Assembly: GCF_004010195.1 (NCBI RefSeq) | Contig: NC_057742.1 | Span: forward strand, 3,297,084-3,361,083 | Direction of reading: 5' to 3' | Length of the DNA stretch: 64,000 nucleotides | DNA from: Chiloscyllium plagiosum | Taxonomy: Eukaryota | Part shown: positions 34,896 to 63,948 of the stretch, one piece after another | How positions within the stretch are numbered: position 1 is the first letter of the stretch | How the letters are laid out: every line of letters starts with the position of its first letter | The notes under the pieces: generated by a model | The model's input: the letters and a program-made list of their open reading frames with translations, nothing else | Databases searched by the model: none | What the model was told of the DNA's origin: nothing | Translations under genes and position numbers: made by a program

Positions 34896-34979
34896 AACTG
34901 GAGTAATTCAGGCAGTTTCTTGTCACTGCGATCAAACAGAAGCCCAACAACATGAAACTACCTAAGTCACACAGCAGTT
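34896..34979 (-). ncRNA. mir196a: mir-196 precursor (mature miR-196a-5p at 34943-34964)
   Basis: Exact reverse complement of UAGGUAGUUUCAUGUUGUUGGG, with a pairing 3p arm at 34908-34928 and a basal stem AACUG/CAGUU. It sits at the canonical position between Hox9 and Hox10. Confidence 0.97.
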
Positions 34980-38430: not shown

Positions 38431-38702
38431 TCAAATCGGGAAAGTAGCCGATATTTCTCGAACTCTGTGCTCCCTGCTCATCTTTTTAAGTTTCATTCTT
38501 CGGTTTTGAAACCAAATTTTGACTTGTCTGTCGGTTAGATTCACACTCCGGCTGATCTCCAGGCGGCGCTCTCGAGTTAAGTACATGTTGAAGAGGAATT
38601 CCTTTTCAAGTTCCAGTGTCTGTTGCTTGGTGTATGGGCAGCGTTTCTTTCTTCCGCCCTTTGCAGACAGCCAGTTTATCGTATTCTCAGTCTTTGTACT
38701 CT
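38431..38702 (-). CDS. hoxb10: Hoxb10 exon 2 (homeodomain)
   Basis: Encodes [90 protein letters not shown], a paralog group 10 signature. Acceptor ttgacag|AG. Confidence 0.94.
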
Positions 38703-40815
38703 CTGTCAATCGGGAAAAACACATTGTCAAACGACCTATAGAGTAAAATAGATTCTGTTTTCCTCCCTTTCACCACCAATGACTCAGGAATTGCAAAAAG
38801 GTATCCCGACTGAGAAGGGGGAGGGTTAGGATTTTCGGCACATAGTCAGCTAGGGGAATATGAACACTCCATATTTTATCCTGCTTCGTATTAGCGTATG
38901 GTATAGAAGGGTGTTTCACGATGGAGCATTACCTGCTTGATTCAACTTTAGGCCTATATAACAGTTTCGGCAACTGTACTCAAAGGAATATCATGTACCT
39001 GGACAAATACCAGCGGGAGGGTCTAATTAGGTTCATTATAAGGCATTTTCACGAATGCACGTGGCACTAAAACTTGATTCCTAACAATACAGAGATGAAG
39101 GTAATAGAAGAAACTATTACGGACAATACATAATACATTACGGACAATCCCTTTGATATTACAAAAAGACACGATGGTGCCTAAAGCTTTATTTCAAAAA
39201 CAGCATTATGTTTAAAACACAGCTAATTTAGTTTGCAATGAAACACAACCTAAACTAAAATTCAAATTAATAATGGTAAAATTATGTTAAAAGTGTGAGT
39301 AACTGGTTTAAAGTAAGCATATTTATTTTCTACTGCATCCAGGAAAGTGCATGTAAACACTTGTTAACTTTCCAGAGACAATGTTTTATGCAACGACCTT
39401 GCTGAGTACAGTTTTAGAACACATTTGTTACATGCCACATAACGGTTAACCCCGGTATAAAAGCTTTTATTCTGACTTTATCTCCAAGGTTCTGGTTTAT
39501 GCAAGGAAGGGAAAACAGTTGTGAGCTGAGGACAATAAAATAGAACCATAGGTCCAACTGTTTTAAACAGGAAGTCATCAGGCATTTTATAAGGCTTCTC
39601 CACACTTCTCATTTTATTTTTTTTTCCCTGACAGTCTAGCATTCCTTTTGCTGGAGTGGATGCAAGCAAATGACACATTCTAATGCAATTCATCGTCTTA
39701 TTGTGAATGTAGGGATGCAATGCTCTATATTGATCTCTTTCTCCATAAGATTTTAGATTTTTAAATAGTTTCTCGTTATAAAAATAATATTATCTCTGAG
39801 GTGAACGCCTTTATAGTATTAGTCGAATTTAGTTGCTTCCACCAACGTTATTGCATCATCCTAAAATATCATGCACCAGAATACATCATTGACAAAAAAA
39901 AATCAATATATTCAACCTGTAGGCACAATACCACAGTCGCTCGACATCTTTACAGTCTATCGTGGCAAAATACAGGTATTTGACTTTCTCGGGCACTAAA
40001 ACATGTCGTTTCGTGAAATCCGACAGTTACAATAAAACTGTAGCATCTTCTTGTTCAGTGAGCCGAATAGCCTCCATCTGTGCTGCAAGTTTTCCATATC
40101 TCTAAAGTAACTCGATTGCAAGTGCAGTTATCCACTAACCATTTAAGATTACAGCATTGATGTAATTCCATTAATGCAAGTTACACCCTTATACAGTTCT
40201 TGATTTTATGGAAAAGGTCCAAAGTCATGGAATATAAATCAATATTACATATTCAGTCATTGTAAGCTTATCAGCATGCAGATATAACAACACTCACAAA
40301 GAAACTGCTGATATAGAGTTAAAATATTCGGCGTGTGTGGTGCAGGGGATAGTTCCTTACTGACCAAATTTCAACTGGCTGAGCTGAAACACGCGAAGAA
40401 TATCTGAGTATCACTACTCAACGACTCTGTAAATGGAACAAAAACAGAAAATGCTGTAAATAACTCTGCAGTTCTGGCGGCATCTGTGGAGAGGGGTACA
40501 GAGTTAACGTTTTCAGGTCGTGACATTTCAACAGAACGAACTGAAATGTTAACTGTTTCTGTCTCTCTCTACTGAGGCTGTCAGATCTGCCGTGCATTTC
40601 GCCATTTTCTGTTTTTCTCATGGATTTACTGTTTTGAAAATATTTTGCTTTTGGTCTCTATATAAATATGGACTGGCCACGTTTTTGTTTACAACTCTAG
40701 GCATTATTATACGGACACGATTTGCCATTAAGTTGTGTCGACACTATTTGCCAACATCCCAGTATTCAGCCGTATATTAGGAATGTTTCCCGCGTCTGTT
40801 TTGGTCATCCAAAAA

Positions 40816-41242
40816 CATTGCAGTTAGCATCAAACAACAATGGGATACACAAATGATGTATTGTTATGCAAATCTGGAACATGTTAAGCACACGGCTAAA
40901 CTTTGAATTTGAGGCCAAGTATTGTAAGGAGGCATAGTTTGTCCATTGTCCCTCTAGATTTCGAGGGACCATCTTAGACTTTGAATAACCTTAGAACTGG
41001 GAGAAATACACTATCAATTCCATTCTTGTCACATCTCTTAAATGTAAACTGCAAATATGAGCAACGATAGAAATTATTGATAACTCTCAGACTAAATTAG
41101 AAGCATGCACCGAAACCACAGATACAGTAATTTTGGATTGGCAAAGTTTACTTAAATAGACTTGGTTGGAGACTTTTATAATTAACAAAATTCCTATGTA
41201 GCTGTGAAATCTCTGCTAATTTATTCTGAACAATAGATAGAT
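40816..41242 (+). repeat. Long inverted repeat, left arm (Hoxb10 intron)
   Basis: Aligns to the reverse complement of 42262-42687 over ~427 bp. About 45 differences by manual count (just under 90% identity). Confidence 0.95.
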
Positions 41243-42261
41243 AAAGCATTTATGTGATATAGTTATGCAGTTGAAAAGATAGGTTGTGGTCAAATAAGTA
41301 AAATCAGGAATTTTATGTATAACGTTCTCCTTTCAGCTGCCTACCGAATGCATCAAAGATCCAAAACATGGGCACCTATGTAGTAAGCAGTCTGAAATCA
41401 CTCCAGATTTTTCCAATAGTTTGTATGAGATGTTACAATGTCAGTTTGTGTTTCTTATTATATGGGTGCAAATTGTAAACTCTACTACATTTTCGATTCA
41501 AATGTTATGTGTTATTTGGTTGTCGCCCCAAATCAGCATGGAAACATGCTGAATCCGTGGATTCGTATGAACTTAAATTACAGACAATTACACAACAAGT
41601 TTCAGGTGACCCTCACAGGGATATCTTGCAAGAAACACAATACTATATTACCTGAGGTTCAGTTCAAATAATAAAGTTCAAATTTGCACTACATTTTCAG
41701 GCATAGTGCTAATATTTGCTGATTAAAACAAGCCAGTACTATGCTGAAAAGTCGTATTTTACAACTAATGAGTGAACCCTACTCTTGAGTTTATGTTGCC
41801 ATTGTTATTATTATTTCATAACAAAATATATATTGCACATTGAAACGGTGTAGAAATTACTAATATCTAGGAATCACAATTAAGGAAGTCGCGTAACTTG
41901 TACTTTGTTAGCTACAAGTTCAATTTTAAAAATAATCAAAACCCCAATCTATTTTCAGGCCTCCATCTCAATTAGCTACTTTGTCACGTTATTGGGTTCT
42001 TTGTGTGAAGCTGACGTTACTTCAATGCAACAAAGATGGCGGAAGCATTGTTGTCGTAGTATGCAGTTTTTATCCTAACGCTTTTGACATCTATGGAAAA
42101 GGAAATTCTATGGAAGTCAAATAACCCCCAGAAATTGGAGAAATTAACTGATATGTAATGGAGAACAGACTACATGTAGTTAGAAAGTGAGAACTGCCAG
42201 ATAGATAGAACTAAATAAAATTTATAATCGACCTGATGGAATCTTTCTCACAGATCAGATA

Positions 42262-42687
42262 ATCTATCCATTGTTCAGAATAAATTAGCAGAGATTTCAC
42301 AGCTACAAAAGAATTTTATTAATTAAAGAAGTCCCAAACAAGTTTATATAAGTAAACTTTGCCAATCCAAAACCACCATATCTGATGTTTAGATGCATGT
42401 TTCTAATGTAGTCTCAGAGTTATCAATAATTGCTATGATTGCTCCTATTTACAATTCACATTTAAAAGATGTGAAAAGAATGGAATTGATAGTGTATTTG
42501 TCCTAGTTCTAAGGTTATTCAAACTCTGAGATGGTCCCTGGAAATCTAGAGGAACAATGGACAACTATGCCTCCTTTACAATACTTGACCTCAAATGCAA
42601 AGTTTAGCCGTGTGCTTAACATGCTCCAGATTTGCATAACAATACATCATTTGTGTATCGCATTGTTACTTGATGCTATCTGCAATG
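42262..42687 (-). repeat. Long inverted repeat, right arm (Hoxb10 intron)
   Basis: For example ttgttcagaataaattagcagagatttcacagctac is the reverse complement of gtagctgtgaaatctctgctaatttattctgaacaa in the left arm. Confidence 0.95.
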
Positions 42688-44423
42688 CCCTTGTTTGTGT
42701 CATTTAATTGTGTGGTTAAACACTCAGTAAACCAGTGCTAGATAGACAGAGTTCCCTTCACTTCAGCACATTTACGTTGATACCACAAAGACACACAAGC
42801 CAGTAGAAATTAGGAAACAGTCACTGGAGCAGTTTGGGGTTGCAATTTAATTTACAAAGGAATTTGCCGGCTTATAGGCAACTAAAGTGGTTATATATTG
42901 CAATGTTTCATTATTTTATGTGGGCCAGTGTAGGTGGAGGAAATCCGTTATGGCGGATCAGAGTTAATTATAACTTCCTTCGTATTACTGCATCCTGGTG
43001 TTTACCACTGCTTTCGCCTTGCGTAGCAGCTCAGGATTTTGTTGGGTGTTGGGCGTGTGTGTGGGGGGGAGGGGGGGGGCGCGGGGGTGAGCGGAATTTT
43101 AAAAGTACGTTTTACCGGAGAGTACAGGAGGAGCATGGTTTATTGCTTACTCACCTACTAGACAATAGCCAGTCTCTGAAAGAATCGGCGATAACTCTTG
43201 CGACATTCGTCGTTTTTCGCAAACGTTGTGTTAGAATCAGCTCACAGCTAGAGTGCTATTGGAATCTTAGGTACCTACCAGGAAATAACATTCGGAGTAT
43301 TTTGGATTACAAATTAGCATGTCGGTTCAATTTATTTGCCCCCGTGGTTCTTTTATTCCTAATTTACTGACAGCGAGTTCTCATTTAATACCGCAATCCT
43401 TCTGCAGCGCCGCGTGATGTAATTTTTCTTCGGCGCCATAATCCAGCTCCATGGCAACATATAGACCTTAAATAGATGTCACACGCTGCCTTCAAGCTCA
43501 TTTTAGTTATGTTCAGGATTTGGAATTCACAATTTAATCTTGCAAATTGTTTAGATGAATGAACCAATCGATGGAAGACTGCCTGGGACGCTTAGTACAT
43601 TCACCATCAGACTTAAATCTAACACATCAATACCCACAATTGTTCACTGAAAATATCATTGACCACCAATGCAGATGTTTGCATCATAGCTCCAAACTCT
43701 GATTTCATTCTAAATGATATTCTTCAGTGCAGGTTTTTTTAATGAATACATGACTATTTAATAGCGATCCCTGTAATTCTACCCACAACATTTCTCTGTA
43801 TGTGCAAAATAGATGCGTGGACATATTTAACAGATCCATTCATTTTGGTCGTCTCTGAGTATAATGTAAGCATACATGGGTAATGTACATGTAAACTCAT
43901 ACGATGAAATTTTAATGGTGTAATATGTTTGCAATTTGTGCATATTTGTATACATTGTGATTACAGATTTTGCGGTCATGAAATTATTTAGACATATTAA
44001 CAAACATAATTGCATGGTTTTTTCTTACTAACATAACTGTTTTATGTTAATGTCATGTGTGCTTAATGTCATTGCAATTTTATGTTTTCTCCTTAAGCAT
44101 GTCTTGCGCTTGGCATTCTTTTTTGCATTGGTCAGTTGTTTCTATTTTGTGCCGGGCTGTCCTGCAACTAAAGAGTGGCTTTCGGAACAGTTTTGATCCT
44201 TAAAGGTCCTTGAAACGTGTTTGCAATTTACTCTGTGGTATGGGGTCTATCCTATAAATTACTGAAGGTATTAATTTGAACTGAGGGATTTTTGTCTCTG
44301 GAGACGAAAAAATATCTCCTTTATAACCTAATTAAAGTCACCTTGCCGCAGATGAGAGAATTTCCTAGGTTCCTGCTCCAAATGCCATGTCATTGTCTTC
44401 CTTTCGTTCAGGATCTTACCCAC

Positions 44424-45156
44424 CTTTTACTTCCTTCTCAGGAACGGGTTTATCCGCGCCAGGAAACTGTAACTTTGCTGTTTCTTGTGTAAACGTGCTT
44501 TCTCTTCCCCCTGTGTTTTTTCCCGGGATTCCGCGACTCGGCTCTTTAGAGGCGCTCACTTTTAGTTCTTTTTCACCTGGTTTTGAAGAGGACGACGTGG
44601 CGAAGGAAGAAGTGAAGGGAATGCTGGAGTGAATCGAGCACGGAGCAGTGGCTGGCTGTGGTTGGCTGTAATCCGTCGGTTTGTTTGATGAATAACTCGA
44701 TTCTGAACGGAAATAGCTGGGCATGGGCACCCTGCCACTGCCATTTGTGCAGAGTTCAGAAATCACCCTCGGGTAGACTGAAACCTCGGAGTGCGTCTTC
44801 GAATATTTATCCCCGCCTAATAAACAATAGTTCGCTTCTTCCTTCACGCTGGACGTAAAGGAGTAAGTGTTTATCTGTTGGAGCCGGGCTGTGTGGTTGG
44901 AGGGTGACGGGTTTGCCCACCCGGCCATGCCTGGCATGCCAGACACGTACTGATGTGGAACCAAACCTATACCTTGCTGGTTGTTCATCTCCCCTTGTTT
45001 ACGGTGTGCTAGGCCAACTTGCCAATTCTGTACCCCGGAGCCCTGGTCCGCTCTGGACGACAAATAAGCCCCAGGACAGTAAGATTCAGTCCGTCTGGAG
45101 CAAATTAAAGACTTCACTGAAAACGAGCTGGAAGTTGAATTCTCCGAACATGACAT
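44424..45156 (-). CDS. hoxb10: Hoxb10 exon 1
   Basis: Begins MSCSENSTSSSFSVKSLI and includes the Hox10 motifs YSFTSSVKEE..YCL and VPMPSYFR. Phase-1 donor AAAG|GTGGGT. Exons of 733+272 nt give 334 aa. The intron is 5721 bp. Confidence 0.9.
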
Positions 45157-46107: not shown

Positions 46108-46196
46108 TCTGCTTTCTCTCCACAGATGCTGCCAGATCTGCTGAGATTTTCCAGCAATTTCTGTTTATGTTGCTGATTTTCAGCATCTGCAGTTCT
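46108..46196 (+). mobile_element. Short interspersed repeat fragment, probably Penelope-type terminal repeat remnant
   Basis: tctgctttctctccacagatgctgccagatctgctgagattttccagcaatttctg...cagcatctgcagtt is homologous to 63368-63454 in this window, where it follows a hammerhead-like motif. The family assignment is inference. Confidence 0.7.
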
Positions 46197-49100
46197 TCGG
46201 GGGGGGGAGCTTTGAAAACATAATTTTATTTCACATCGATACACACTTTAATCCGTTCAATTAGCTATTAAAATAGCAGCTCGGTTTAATCTATTTATGC
46301 TATTTATCGTTTATCGAACCAGTTGTTACCGTATATTTTCAACAGTAGGAAATGAACTTCGTTTTTATACCACAATAGCTCTGCTACGTTCTCTGGCTTT
46401 ATTTTTTTATCAAACCTCTTACGCATTGTGTTCACCGTTTGAACGTCAAAACGAGTAGTTGTGTATCTATGTAGTTTTTATACTTAAAACCTGCCATATC
46501 TCTTTATTTTACGAAAATTTGTTTCGGAGTGTTAGAGAATCGAGTACAAGGAAGTAATCAAACCAGGGAATTGGCTTTTCTTTCTAATGGAAACGCGGAT
46601 ATTATATGTGATGCAAAGTAAGCAGAGACGTTATCTGCTTCAGAGCAAGGAATCTCAAGCTTGCAGTACATTTGTCCACATTTGGGCAATTGTTTCGCCA
46701 TTTATCTATAGCCATTAAATTAGACTTTATGCACCCCTGAGGTTTTTCAACTGGGATCAAATCTCCTATAAAAACACGTATTTGCAATAGCAGTTGAGTT
46801 AAACTAGCGCCGTTTTTAAAGAAAAGCAGAACTACGTAAGTTGGCTTTTTCCCGAGAGTAAAATACATTTTCTCTGTCAAATTCAGGCAGAGACGCAGGC
46901 GCAGTAAAAAAAACTGTATTAACAAAACATAAAATATTAACTTTGAAATACTAGCCTCTGCGGAATTTCGCGGACTCAACTGTAAATATATAAGAACAAA
47001 AAATGTTTAACTCTGACGATGACAGTTAGGAACATTTTTATTGACAACTAACTAAGTCATTAACTTACAGATTTGATGGTGTTGTTCTTTTCAACCTCAA
47101 TTAAATCTGTTTTGGTGACTAACGTTAATTCTGCGCACATTTTTAATCCTCTGAAAGTAAAGCCAAAGAATCAGCAATGTGAATTGGAAATCCAATCCAA
47201 TATGTTCCAGCTTTTATTGAACACGTCTGCAAGTGCCGCTTTCGCACCACTAAACGCCCCCAACCAGCCCGAGAAATATATCAACTAAAGTGAAATGAAA
47301 GCAGTTTTGTGTGAACAAGTGGGCTTCACTACTATTCATAAACCCGTAATATTTCAGAGCAACAATAGGAGATTGTAACATGTTATTGCCACGTGAACGT
47401 GACACGCGTGGAGAGGATTTTCTACCCCGAACTGCAGCAATAACTCTCCAGAAATGACTGAGCCACTGGTGTAAGAGAATAAGCAAAAGGATTACCCCGG
47501 CTCTTGCTTATAAGAAGACCCTGGGTAGCCGCGTGGAACAACCTAAAGCGCGGTTCATTGTATGTGAGAAATGGACAAGATTAAAGGACTGAGGGTGGAT
47601 TTACACACATGAACACATTATAGACTAGGATTATCGCAATATCTGAGTAAAGATCATCAAACCAAAACTTTGGACACTAACTCCCAGCAAAGCGTTTCGA
47701 TAGCTGCTATTGGCGTCCCAAACCAAACAAACAGAAAGCATAAATGCAAGATCCAGAACGATATACGACACTGCCATATTATATACAAAGCTCTGAACAA
47801 GAGTGCAGCCCATGGTACGTATAGCTGCAGTCAGAAAGTTCATTAACATACTGTTCATTGTATAAACACACCGGCACAATCTTGCATCATTGTTTTGTTA
47901 GACAGTTTATTGCGGTCAAATTTTGTAATCTAGTTTGAATGGAAATTGGACATGCGCTTGCACTATCGAAAATGGCTTTGTTAGTAATTGAAGTTGTTGT
48001 TCCCTTTTTTTTATTTAGGATGCACTACTACAAACCTAGGGATTTCGATCCTTTTGGTGGAATTTTGCATACAATGGATTGAGATTTCTTTTATTTATGA
48101 ACAGTGAGACAAATGAATGGATAAGTAATATGATTATAATGATGATCTGTGATTAATTAGACCCCCACAGCTCAATACTATTCTGTTAGTATACTTAATT
48201 TAGAAAAAAGTCCTTTCCTGTGAACTTGAGCGTCATTCATCTACGTCGGCCTGAGCCAAGCATTTCGGTTCAATTTGTCTATAAGCGCCCGGTGAGCAGG
48301 CAAAATATATGGTACAACGCCAAAAAAAACAACACAGACTCATTTTAAATCACAATATTCATGTTGTGCCTCCTTCGATAAAATCCTTGGGGATTTTAAG
48401 TTTTTAAAATAACAAACTTCAGAAAAAGTGCTGAACAGACTTAGGTTTGTGTGAATTGTGACTCGTGTGCATCTACTTTATCGTAAATTAAGGTTGAGAT
48501 TTACAATAGACCCCATGCCTCTTTTCGAAATTCGAAACTCCAGATATTAGGGGTTAATGATAAGAATTGTTGCGCTGATTAAAAACAAAGAGACAGAACT
48601 GCGTGCGGCATAGCATCTGATGCTGGTGCCTGCTCGGTGAAAATAGGCCATGTATTTTAAATCAGGTTTATACATCTAAATTGACAGCACCTTCAGCAGG
48701 AATCCTTTACAGTGATTGTTAAATGGATGAATTACAATCTCAACGCTGAATTTAAGAGAAGAAACATTTTTGAATGGGTCACATTATTTTTCGAGATTCC
48801 ATATAGGGTTCAGTGGCGGCCAGTTAACAGACCATCACCGGGAAGGGGGGAGGGAGAGGAGGTGGGTAGACGTTACGACACTTATTGCAAAATGGCGACA
48901 GAACTCTGACTGCCTTGGAGAAAATTATGTAACAACTGACTTATGAAACTCAACAAACATTAATTTCTGATCTGTGATACATGAACAATAGATTGGGATT
49001 CAACAATGAATATCTAGTTCCAACAGTAAACAGAAACATTTTCCGAATTATCCTTGCAGGTGTCATAGTTTCGCATACCATTTATCCTTCAAATTCTAAG

Positions 49101-52976: not shown

Positions 52977-53396
52977 ATTTTAATATTCAATATTTAGGAA
53001 TTATATATCTTCAAAAATTGGAAATTCCTGCTCAAATTTCCTAATTATAGAAGCAATATTTTTTGTAGATCGCTCTGGAAAATATAAATCACCACTGTAG
53101 TTCTCAAAATCTCCACGCGAGGGCGGTGTTGTTTCACAAATAAGCCGAAAAAGACCTTGGCCTTTAAATCAAAAAACCTATGTAATATTTTAATATTCAA
53201 TATTTGGGAATTATATATCTTCGAAAATTGGAAATTCCTGCTCAAATTTCCTAATTATAGAAGCAATCTTTTTTGTAGATCTCTCTGGAAAATATAAATC
53301 ACCACTGTAGTTCTCAAAATCTCCACGCGAGGTCGGTGTTGTTTCACAAATAAGCCGAAAAAGACCTTGGCCTTTAAATCAAAAAACCTATGTAAT
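52977..53396. repeat. Tandem duplication, 2 x 210 bp
   Basis: taatattcaatattt...aaaaaacctatgtaat recurs at 52981 and 53191 with about 5 substitutions. Confidence 0.97.
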
Positions 53397-59290: not shown

Positions 59291-61665
59291 TTTTCCCAGA
59301 CAGCACTGTTAACAAGAAAGCACATCACAAGAACGTTAACTGTTAATCTTGCGAACATAACCAAAACCTTATTTTGGTTGTGTACAAATTCTGTAACTTG
59401 TCCCCTCTATATTCCCCTTCCACCCCTGAACCAGTTATCAGAAAGTTGTGCCGCTTGTCTTACAAATTGGAGGAAAGAGAGCATTGTGCAATTTGTAATT
59501 CTATTTATGCTAAATACTTAAAGTAGTGAAGATTACTGGGAATTGGTTGAAATCGTGCATCATTTATGCCGGAACCCAGAACAGCCAAATACTGGACCAA
59601 TTTAATCTTTCATTCGATTGTTATGAAAGGTAGAAATTAATCTTAGACATTTAATTGCATTTCATAAGCACCATCTTCCTCAACCCCTTTCCATCCTCGA
59701 CATGACAAATTCTGACTACTGCAAATGTTGACTAATATGGGCTGTGAGTCTGGTTTCAGTCTGAACTTTTTTTTGTGATTTAATTTCTTAAGAATGAACC
59801 TTGTAAAATTGTGACGTCAAATATTCTTGTTATACAATGGAAAATCCAGTTATGAATCTGGAACAGATATAGTAGTGCAAAAATCTTCAGGATGATTCAG
59901 ATTATGAATCAGAAATACTCACTGAAACAGAATCAAACGGTGTTTAAGTTTTAGTGCAAAAATCTGGTATGCACTTTGAAGATCTTTGAATGAGCAAAAC
60001 TATGTTTTGCCTGGCAGGAGCATGGCAGTAAGTTATTAGAAAAACAAATTTCAACTGAACAGTCAACAAATATTCATTACTAAGTGTTACACATTGTAGC
60101 ATGTTCCAAAAGGCGCCACAACATTAAATCCATGAGACAGATCTCATAATGAAAATCTATGTAACCACAGAAATTATCGAACATAGATTAATAATTAAGA
60201 AACTGTCCCCCCCCCCCCCCCCCCCCCCACCCCGTCCCCCGCGTTTCTCTTGACAGTGATCTGTGAGATTGTGAATCACTCAAGTTCCTGGGCTCAATAT
60301 CAACTGGCCTGGGAGGTAATGGCACATTCCTCCTTTTGATACAATAATCTGTTTATGTCACAAAGTGTACCTGATGTGCCCTGTTTTCATGACTGAAAGC
60401 ACTCATATTAAAGCAGTTAATGTGAAAACAGTGATAAAATGCCAGCAACTCCATGAATGTTTAACCTCAAAGTGCATAAGGAACGTTCTGTGTCCTGATC
60501 TAACTTCTTGAATGTCTCCTTCATCTTTTAACAGCAGGTTCGCAGACACAATTTCAGCTCACTAAGGCGAATAATTGATTGAGAAAAATTGGTATATGAA
60601 CTCTCAAAGAATTACGAATAATATTTCAAAGAGAAATAGAATATATTTAACACAAAACCTACTTGGCATAAATTACAATTAAAACTCTTGAACTGCAGGA
60701 ATCAATTTGGTAATTGGCTGTATTAGACTTCTTCATTGTTTGTTACAATTGTGTGCCCATGCATAATGAAGTAGGTCCATCAAATATATTTTTAAAATAT
60801 ATTGTTCATAATCTGTTTGCAATTCCAAGATATTACCTGGACAAAGGATCCCTATTCACTGCAGTCAGGTGAAATTCATATTCTGACCGGCTGGAAAACC
60901 TTAATATGTCTGAGAATATAATTATTGTGTCTTTTCACTGGTGTTTTCGAAACACATGAGTAATACTCCTATAGTTCACGATTTGAGTCCCAGCTCATCG
61001 AAGTGCATTACATTATATCAGGATTGTCTACTTGGTAATTTTAAAATGCACTTTTGTATATTGCAGAGTTGAAAACTTGTTTCTGTAAGTATTATTAAAG
61101 TATGATCCTTGAACAAGAAGTGTATAGAAACCACCGCACAAGAAAGGCCAACAGACGTATGATGGCAATTAAACCCCACATGGTGGACTCACTTTTTCCA
61201 CTCAAACTCATGTCTGTTCCCCAAACCACTTTGTCTGATATATTACATTTGACCTTAAAATCAACAATGCTATCTGCTTCAGCCTGTCCATGTGGCAGCG
61301 AAATCCAGATCCCCACCATTTGTCTTGTAAAGGCTTGCTCCTAGATTCTTTATCCCACCTGTTAGTGTGTGTTCTTTTCTGCCTAAGCTCACAAGGAAGA
61401 TCCTTTTTAACACCCTAATTGAAGTTTCCAATTCTTTACCAATCTCATTTAATTCTCAGATTTTTCTGAGAATTAAATTCAGTGTTCAAAATCACCTAGA
61501 AGGTATGCATTTCCGATTGCAAAAAAAAACCTCTATATCTTTTCTGAACGTTCTCAATTGTTGCATTATGGGAATCAGATTTCCATTTTCCAAATTTGAT
61601 CTAACAAAGTTTCTATATTAATTCAAAAAAATTCTATTCTATTCTTGTATCTATTATTCTCCAAT

Positions 61666-61974
61666 GCACACAATACTTCATATATAATGTTTGTGGTGCT
61701 ATGAACCTGTTTTGCCACTTTAGTGATCATGCATCTAGTATTTCTTCAATTATTTATTACATAGCTCCATATTTATTATCCTTTCACAAAACTGTAGTCT
61801 CCTTTTTTCACCTACACAAAGCACACAATACTTCATATATAATGTTTGTGGTGCTATGAACCTATTTTGCCACTTTAGTGATCATGCATCTAGTATTCTT
61901 CAATTATTTATTACATAGCTCCATATTTATTATCCTTTCACAAAACCGTAGTCTCTTTTTTTCACCTACACAAA
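61666..61974. repeat. Tandem duplication, 2 x ~155 bp
   Basis: gcacacaatacttcatatataatg...ttcacctacacaaa occurs at 61666 and 61821 with about 4 differences. Confidence 0.97.
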
Positions 61975-63003: not shown

Positions 63004-63345
63004 TGATTTGGAGGTGCCGGTGTTGAACTGGGGTGTACAAAGTTAAAAATCACACAACACCAGGTTATAGTCCAACAGGTTTAATTGGAAGCACTGGCTT
63101 TCGGAGCGCTGCTCCTTCATCAAGTGGTTCTTATTCTATTTTATGTTTGAGGGGTATGCTGTGCTGATACTGCTCCTGTTTTCAGTGTGCATCAAGACCC
63201 AGTATTCAAAGGAAAAAAATGCAAACCAAACAATTAAAATTCTGAATTTAATACAAATTTGGCAACCACCTGATGAAGGAGTGGCACTCCGAAAGCTAGT
63301 GCGCTTCCAATCCAACCTGTTGGACTATAACCTGGTGTTGTGTGA
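63004..63345. mobile_element. Insertion with inverted Penelope-type terminal repeats, flanked by a 12-bp direct repeat
   Basis: Inverted arms at 63049-63129 and 63264-63345. TCTCTGGACCTA is duplicated at 62992-63003 and 63346-63357. The internal 63130-63263 matches 63674-63808. Confidence 0.85.
63264..63304 (+). ncRNA. Candidate minimal type I hammerhead ribozyme motif
   Basis: Reads CAC-CUGAUGA-A-GGAGU(GGC)ACUCC-GAAA-GC-UA-GUG. This gives both core boxes, a 5-bp stem II, a palindromic AGCU helix III and a CAC/GUG stem I. Confidence 0.7.
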
Positions 63346-63948
63346 TCTCTGGACCTAAAACGTTAACTCTACTTTCTCTCCACCGCTGCTGGCAGACCAG
63401 CTGAGATTTTCCAACAACTTCTAATTTTGTTTCTGATTTCCAGCATGAGCAGTTTTTAATATACCTAACAATGATTGTCTGATAAGGAAATTATAATCCC
63501 CCAAAACCTCAAAATTCAAATAAATTGCGAAATGAGGAGGAGAAAGGTGATGGTTTATAGCTTTGTGTCCCTACATTGGAAAATATTTATTTTACTCAAT
63601 TAGTTGAAGTGTTCTGCTGAAAAAAGTTCAAATTCTTACTGTTAACTCAAGGACGAGAATAGATAATATTCTTCTTATTCTATTTTATGTGTGAGGGGTA
63701 TACTGTGCTGATACTTCTCCTGCTTTCAGTGTGTCTCAAGACCCGGTATTCAAAGGAAAAAAATGCACAATAAACAATTAAAATTCTGAATTTAACACAA
63801 AATTTGGCGAGCAGTGTAAAAGATTCTTTCAGGCAATAATTATCTTTCATGATTGGAAAAGAATTTTTTTCTTGTCAAACGATTTTACCTTTCGGTACTA
63901 TTGCAGTCAGTCCAAAATTGTTAATAAACTTCACATTCTCCCGAATGT

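Follow-up and report, generated by a model that had tools for sequence, protein, structure and literature searches.

An old inverted repeat in the Hoxb10 intron of Chiloscyllium plagiosum, probably left by a local copying accident

Foldback, MITE- and MULE-type elements have long terminal inverted repeats and no coding capacity, and inverted Alu pairs form inverted-repeat intronic dsRNA that is edited by ADAR. ADAR biology implies that a duplex of this kind would undergo editing, provided that it forms ahead of intron degradation. Inverted duplicates with arms from 10 nt upward number about 0.4 to 5 million per vertebrate genome according to the available part of Chen et al. 2017 (PMC5398296), and the search for MMB-TI templated insertions in human genomes, as described in the accessible text of PMC8421209, covered read-length insertions at most 100 bp from their template. 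Hox clusters are described as generally lacking complex repeats, yet the HoxA cluster of the skate contains a SINE fragment (PMC2746220, in the text available), and high repeat coverage is given for the stingray HoxB cluster in the available portion of a preprint (bioRxiv 10.1101/2025.06.08.657570).

Here, we analyzed an inverted repeat inside the Hoxb10 intron of the bamboo shark C. plagiosum, using a window of 64,000 nucleotides, by which we mean the whole stretch of DNA under analysis. Our literature search, which covered papers without their supplements, found none describing this repeat, and the available part of the text of PMC7677710 does not mention it. We read it, with a probability of roughly 0.7, as an old, one-off, locally templated inverted insertion that evolves neutrally, and a harmless copying accident is its most likely source.

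The inverted repeat and its host gene

Six homeobox exons in the window belong to a minus-strand Hox cluster, whose gene order fits HoxB, paralogues 5 to 10, judging by the established content of the cluster. Exon 1 of the host gene is a 100% match to Hox-B10a of Chiloscyllium plagiosum, whose 90% cluster also contains C. punctatum, Hemiscyllium, Stegostoma and Rhincodon. The identity of this exon and the GT-AG intron (Table 1) agree on the Hoxb10 intron as the site of the repeat, which is where an earlier note on this DNA had placed it. The intron, at 5.7 kb, is much larger than the stretch of roughly 0.6 kb that separates the Hoxb9 exon frames of this window, and between arm B and exon 1 it contains a G-rich tract, GGGGGGGAGGGGGGGGGCGCGGGGGTG (43050-43090), which is a possible G-quadruplex-forming stretch. 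An Rfam search of the window returned a single hit, the mir-196 precursor at 34900-34973 on the minus strand, between Hoxb10 and Hoxb9 as expected, and nothing in the Hoxb10 intron.

Table 1. Features in and around the Hoxb10 intron (positions in the window)
Feature	Position	Strand	Basis or remark
Hoxb10 coding exon 2 (homeobox)	38431..38702	-	
Hoxb10 intron, 5721 bp, GT...AG	38703..44423	-	
Very high-copy interspersed repeat fragment in the Hoxb10 intron, outside the inverted repeat	40437..40513	+	internal positive control
Possible short duplication or microhomology flanking arm A, AAAACATT	40812..40819	+	7/8 identical to AAAGCATT at 41243-41250
Arm A, 3' arm of the pre-mRNA and probable inserted copy	40816..41242	+	self-BLAST; X3 and X12 contigs
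Spacer (loop), 1019 bp, single-copy intron DNA without known exon	41243..42261	.	flank-level depth in three organisms
Arm B, 5' arm of the pre-mRNA and probable original copy	42262..42687	-	self-BLAST; inner 113 bp in organism C
Hoxb10 coding exon 1	44424..45156	-	100% identical to Hox-B10a record P0001; junction set by reproducing P0001

Self-BLAST of the 64-kb window gave one long inverted match and no other, with 428 columns at 89.5% identity and 3 gaps (E=3e-159); a further comparison broke this match into three ungapped pieces. Between the arms there are 42 substitutions and 3 one-base indels. The description from which we started, a repeat of about 427 bp at 40816..42687 with arms just under 90% identical, about 1020 bp apart and without a transposase ORF, was confirmed: the spacer measures 1019 bp, and no stop-to-stop frame that overlaps the unit is longer than 84 aa. 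With arms of 427 and 426 bp the unit has terminal inverted repeats, and its termini read CA...TG. It lies 1736 nt from the splice donor and 2113 nt from the acceptor, and the loop between the arms contains no known exon; when the loop was crudely scanned for splice signals, one acceptor-like site (42091) and a donor-like site downstream of it (41616) came up, neither with any other support.

The inverted repeat is real. Run X3, which comes from organism A under a second sample code, and the relative organism B each hold two distinct arm contigs and the strand-switch joint between spacer and arm B, and because the arms are distinct and the joint is present in three runs, an assembly artefact was ruled out. 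The window differs from all three contig runs at 39462, 39473, 41511, 41524 and 41525, so its letters at these positions may be private alleles or small assembly errors. A 34-base arm pattern had 0 matches in metagenome contigs.

Copy number and state of the arms in relatives

Four of 24 runs were compared with a reference spanning 39200-42261 (left flank, arm A and spacer) at a likeness threshold of 80%, under which arm B and any dispersed copies would fall on arm A. Copy number was estimated from contig depth, which was summed with some records filtered and gives no exact count; X3 was covered over the whole run and X12 over 89% of it. Two arm contigs were recovered from each, with an arm depth of 13.4 against 6.8-9.4 in flank and spacer for X3 (organism A) and of 19.8 against about 10 beside the arm for X12 (organism B), and the spacer stayed at flank level in three organisms. 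The high-copy element in the same intron reached 25,278 in X3 and 27,817 in X12 (40436-40538), against about 9-10 in the flanks, three orders of magnitude above the arms. Because this internal control reaches a depth of ~25,000, a true repeat family would have been detected, and no sibling copy of at least 80% likeness was found in these two DNA runs. Relatives of the control element occur at about 46108-46197 and 63368-63457, and it occupies the same place in organism C.

The inverted repeat is not a transposon family, and a MITE or foldback assignment fails on two defining tests. The earlier note had named a high-copy transposable-element family with neutral divergence, together with a lack of conservation in relatives and of editing or small RNAs, as the finding that would remove a functional interpretation; at a likeness of at least 80% the arms proved to be only two-copy in X3 and X12. 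It had also seen no target-site duplication, in agreement with our search around the whole unit, where registers of ±6 gave no exact 4-12-mer and no one-mismatch 8-12-mer, and age could have erased such a duplication. The two origins it proposed fared differently: the foldback or MITE-like element is contradicted by two-copy arms, a single-copy spacer and the lack of a target duplication, and the local inversion-duplication stands. We consider it very unlikely that the unit is the single surviving relic of a non-autonomous DNA transposon with long TIRs (foldback, MULE- or MITE-like) that has lost its siblings or whose siblings have diverged too far to be detected. Such a relic would explain the long terminal inverted arms around a non-coding interior and the CA...TG ends, but it has to contend with the lack of any sibling of at least 80% likeness in two DNA runs when the arms are still ~90% identical to each other, with the single-copy spacer and the missing target duplication, and with organism C, which retains the spacer and inner arm B while arm A was not recovered, a state unlike a transposon empty site. 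A hammerhead core, searched for in the unit by its motif pattern, is absent, and the unit does not fit a Penelope-like fold-back with hammerhead, given no core motif, no Rfam hit other than mir-196 in the window and two-copy arms.

In organism B the two arms are present and arranged as in the window: separate contigs span the border of flank and arm A and that of arm A and spacer, others carry arm B, and a strand-switch joint connects 42261 to 41242. Its arm A contig differs from the window at 13 positions, with 0 gaps, over 40911-41361 (451 letters), whereas the window arms are 36 substitutions and 3 indels apart over 40911-41242, which means that most arm differences predate the A-B split. 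Since arm A of organism B stays close to arm A of the window and not to arm B, wholesale gene conversion or homogenisation was ruled out. Neither gene conversion nor covariation of the arms, both of which had been proposed as things to look for in relatives, appeared: wholesale conversion was not seen in organism B, and no compensatory change, with both arms moved to a new letter, occurs among the 40 of 218 difference rows displayed, a comparison of low power that leaves such changes possible. The A-B divergence of the arm A contig (13/451, including 119 bp of spacer) is not below that of the flank (18/966, p=0.24) nor significantly below that of the spacer (39/907, p=0.23), in a comparison of low power. 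At 7 displayed sites both arms of organism B carry the arm-B letter, and these changes would most simply have arisen in arm A of organism A. All 7 weaken pairing, and X3 has the arm-B letter at two of them, so these two may be polymorphic or errors in the window. Near 41358, inside the loop, a spacer contig of organism B has at least 231 letters absent from the window, which were either inserted in B or deleted in A.

Organism C is represented by X19, which we took to be RNA by guess, and differs from the window at 53/1231, 44/1024 (spacer) and 11/331 positions. One of its contigs stops exactly at 40816, and a second runs from 130 unlike letters through arm B's inner 113 bp and the entire spacer as far as 41238, followed by 16 unlike letters at the place of arm A. 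Arm A was not recovered, with a reference (39200-42261) that stops short of the right flank, and the zero depth of X19 over 40848-41053 is a hole that proves nothing about arm A. The inner 113 bp carry the arm-B letter at 6/6 displayed sites and differ from arm A at 12/113, and the difference between the arms would by itself predict 10; with these counts, dropout through hyper-editing is unlikely. The excess of T>C (23) over A>G (12) in X19 is not separable from species differences. These contigs suggest that arm A may be missing in organism C and that arm B would be the original copy. The arms are 9.9% diverged, however, and organisms A and C 4.3% (p=7e-7 under a clock), so that organism C cannot be taken simply as an empty site in its ancestral state, except if the evolution of arm A was fast. 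On the clock argument the duplication would be older than the A-C split, and a secondary loss or an assembly gap in organism C appears more likely than an ancestral empty site.

The predicted RNA duplex and its G·U skew

On the transcribed strand, 383 Watson-Crick and 18 G·U pairs make 401 of the 428 columns pairable, against 388 on the antisense strand. The predicted energy of the two-arm RNA duplex is -608 kcal/mol for the sense strand and -570 kcal/mol for the other, and the longest paired run with G·U allowed is 62 bp, while with DNA parameters the two strands are nearly equal (-369.7 vs -365.9). A roughly 400-bp imperfect duplex is thus predicted for the pre-mRNA. The earlier note had proposed that more than 400 bp of duplex could form, with a possible co-option; a long sense-strand duplex of roughly 400 bp with a 1-kb loop is upheld as a prediction, and there is no sign of co-option. 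By analogy with known ADAR substrates, incidental editing of the putative duplex is plausible. From the raw single-cell RNA run X21, about 2% of which was covered, 30 reads were obtained; every one fell on the high-copy element, and 0 on arm or unique intron DNA. A search across runs listed no RNA run with this sequence, which says nothing about expression.

The 23 transitions between the arms are divided on the transcribed strand into 18 of G·U type and 5 of A·C type, a bias noticed post hoc (p=0.011 against 50:50). As background we counted by hand the 23 displayed flank and spacer sites where organisms B and C agree against the window; their transitions split 7:7, with 9 transversions, and the arms differ from this small sample with a Fisher p of 0.15. 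Transversions make up 19/42 of the substitutions between the arms and 9/23 of the background (p=0.79). Selection for pairing should remove transversions too, and no such depletion is seen. Chance or mutation bias explains the skew at least as well as selection does. Co-option of the stem, as proposed in the earlier note, finds no backing in a flank-like rate of arm A, in undepleted transversions or in the 40 of 218 rows displayed, which hold no compensatory change.

It is unlikely, in our judgment, that an accidental duplication has since come under weak selection as an RNA stem, with G·U tolerated, A·C purged and the stem shortening the effective intron, recruiting ADAR or slowing Hoxb10 splicing, and equally doubtful that a lineage-specific stem under weak pairing selection modulates Hoxb10 splicing or transcript level, whether via ADAR or because 1 kb of the intron is looped out. 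The 18:5 bias on the transcribed strand points that way, as do the sense-strand advantage in pairing and energy with its 62-bp run and the retention of both arms in organisms A and B, but pair-breaking transversions persist, arm A is no slower than its flanks, compensatory changes are absent from the displayed rows, the bias fades to p=0.15 against the local background, and the organism C contig turns unlike the window at the inner edge of arm A. Strand-biased mutation or repair acting on a neutral duplicate, with arm A possibly faster than the clock, is quite unlikely as the source of the skew; A>G and C>T changes of the sense strand linked to transcription or replication, or a bias of mismatch repair while the DNA transiently forms a hairpin, would be its rather improbable causes. 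The displayed transitions assignable to arm A (5 of G·U type, 2 of A·C type) would agree with it, and so would organism C, with the arm-B letter at all 6 displayed sites and arm A 12/113 away, but the same intron shows a 7:7 background, the DNA duplex energies hardly differ between strands, and the numbers are small.

Origin of the repeat and comparison with described systems

In the reading we prefer, a local templated inverted insertion, a polymerase engaged in replication or break repair would have jumped about 1.4-1.9 kb to a template on the opposite strand, copied the 427 bp of arm B and returned, leaving an inverted copy that is now arm A. From then on, each arm would have gathered changes on its own, at the usual rate of an intron. 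In the Hoxb10 transcript the two could pair into the ~400-bp imperfect duplex, closing the 1-kb loop at a distance of over 1.7 kb from both splice sites, and this duplex would perhaps be edited incidentally and then discarded with the intron, probably without function.

The inverted copy lies close to a unique template, as in a templated inverted insertion. The 7/8 near-duplication at the arm A junction and a GCATT common to the start of the spacer and the outer end of arm B are hints that would fit a microhomology-mediated template switch. This microhomology is weak and counts against the reading, as the 7/8 match has a chance of about 0.04 for a search of ±4 registers and a higher one for the ±6 used. 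Also against it are the 18:5 G·U skew, which neutrality does not predict, the room left for compensatory changes by a display of 40 of 218 rows, and the far shorter distance (100 bp) at which published templated insertions were sought, as given in the available text of that work.

Upstream of Hoxb10 the window contains younger local direct duplications, at 52977-53396 (210 bp x2, 97%), at 61662-61974 (154 bp x2, 96%) and as a 137-bp pair at 63128-63263 and 63672-63808 (91%), and we counted these in favor of an origin by local duplication.

The general view that Hox cluster cores largely exclude repeats, on which the earlier note had relied, is weak as a premise for this region, given the high-copy element in the same intron and, in the available parts of their sources, the skate SINE and the stingray HoxB cluster. 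If the repeat is a neutral fossil, a shark HoxB core has long tolerated a 427-bp self-complementary duplication and a high-copy fragment within a Hox intron, which would add modestly to what is known of the strictness of repeat exclusion. Should the G·U skew reflect selection, the locus would document a rarely recorded event, the birth of a structured RNA element in a core patterning gene through a replication accident, and such stems could be sought cheaply and genome-wide by means of the skew; it is the single lead worth following.

Compared with foldback, MITE- and MULE-type elements, the Hoxb10 repeat shares long terminal inverted repeats and a lack of coding capacity, but it has neither dispersed copies nor a target duplication, and its interior is single-copy. 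A long imperfect duplex with a ~1-kb loop is a typical ADAR substrate, as in inverted Alu pairs; unlike Alu (SINE) copies, the Hoxb10 arms are unique sequence, and with no exon in the loop no circular RNA is expected, in contrast with those pairs. The intron location resembles that of a known predicted structure in a paralogue-group-10 intron of cartilaginous fish; that structure is deeply conserved, whereas the Hoxb10 repeat is lineage-restricted as far as seen and shows no constraint.

MMB-TI events of the MMBIR/FoSTeS type, as described in the available part of PMC8421209, resemble the Hoxb10 repeat in placing an inverted copy near its template, in weak junction microhomology and in persisting as germline variants, and the shark repeat differs in its 427 bp, a template 1 kb away, ~10% divergence and a mechanism deduced from anatomy only. 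Set against the non-repetitive inverted duplicates of PMC5398296, again in the text available, the Hoxb10 repeat has long arms, is intronic rather than intergenic, sits in a shark Hox cluster, is known here from DNA and has a spacer (1019) slightly above the 1000-nt limit of their definition; it shares with them reverse-complement arms, a spacer of ~1 kb, a location in non-repeat DNA and the capacity to form hairpin RNA.
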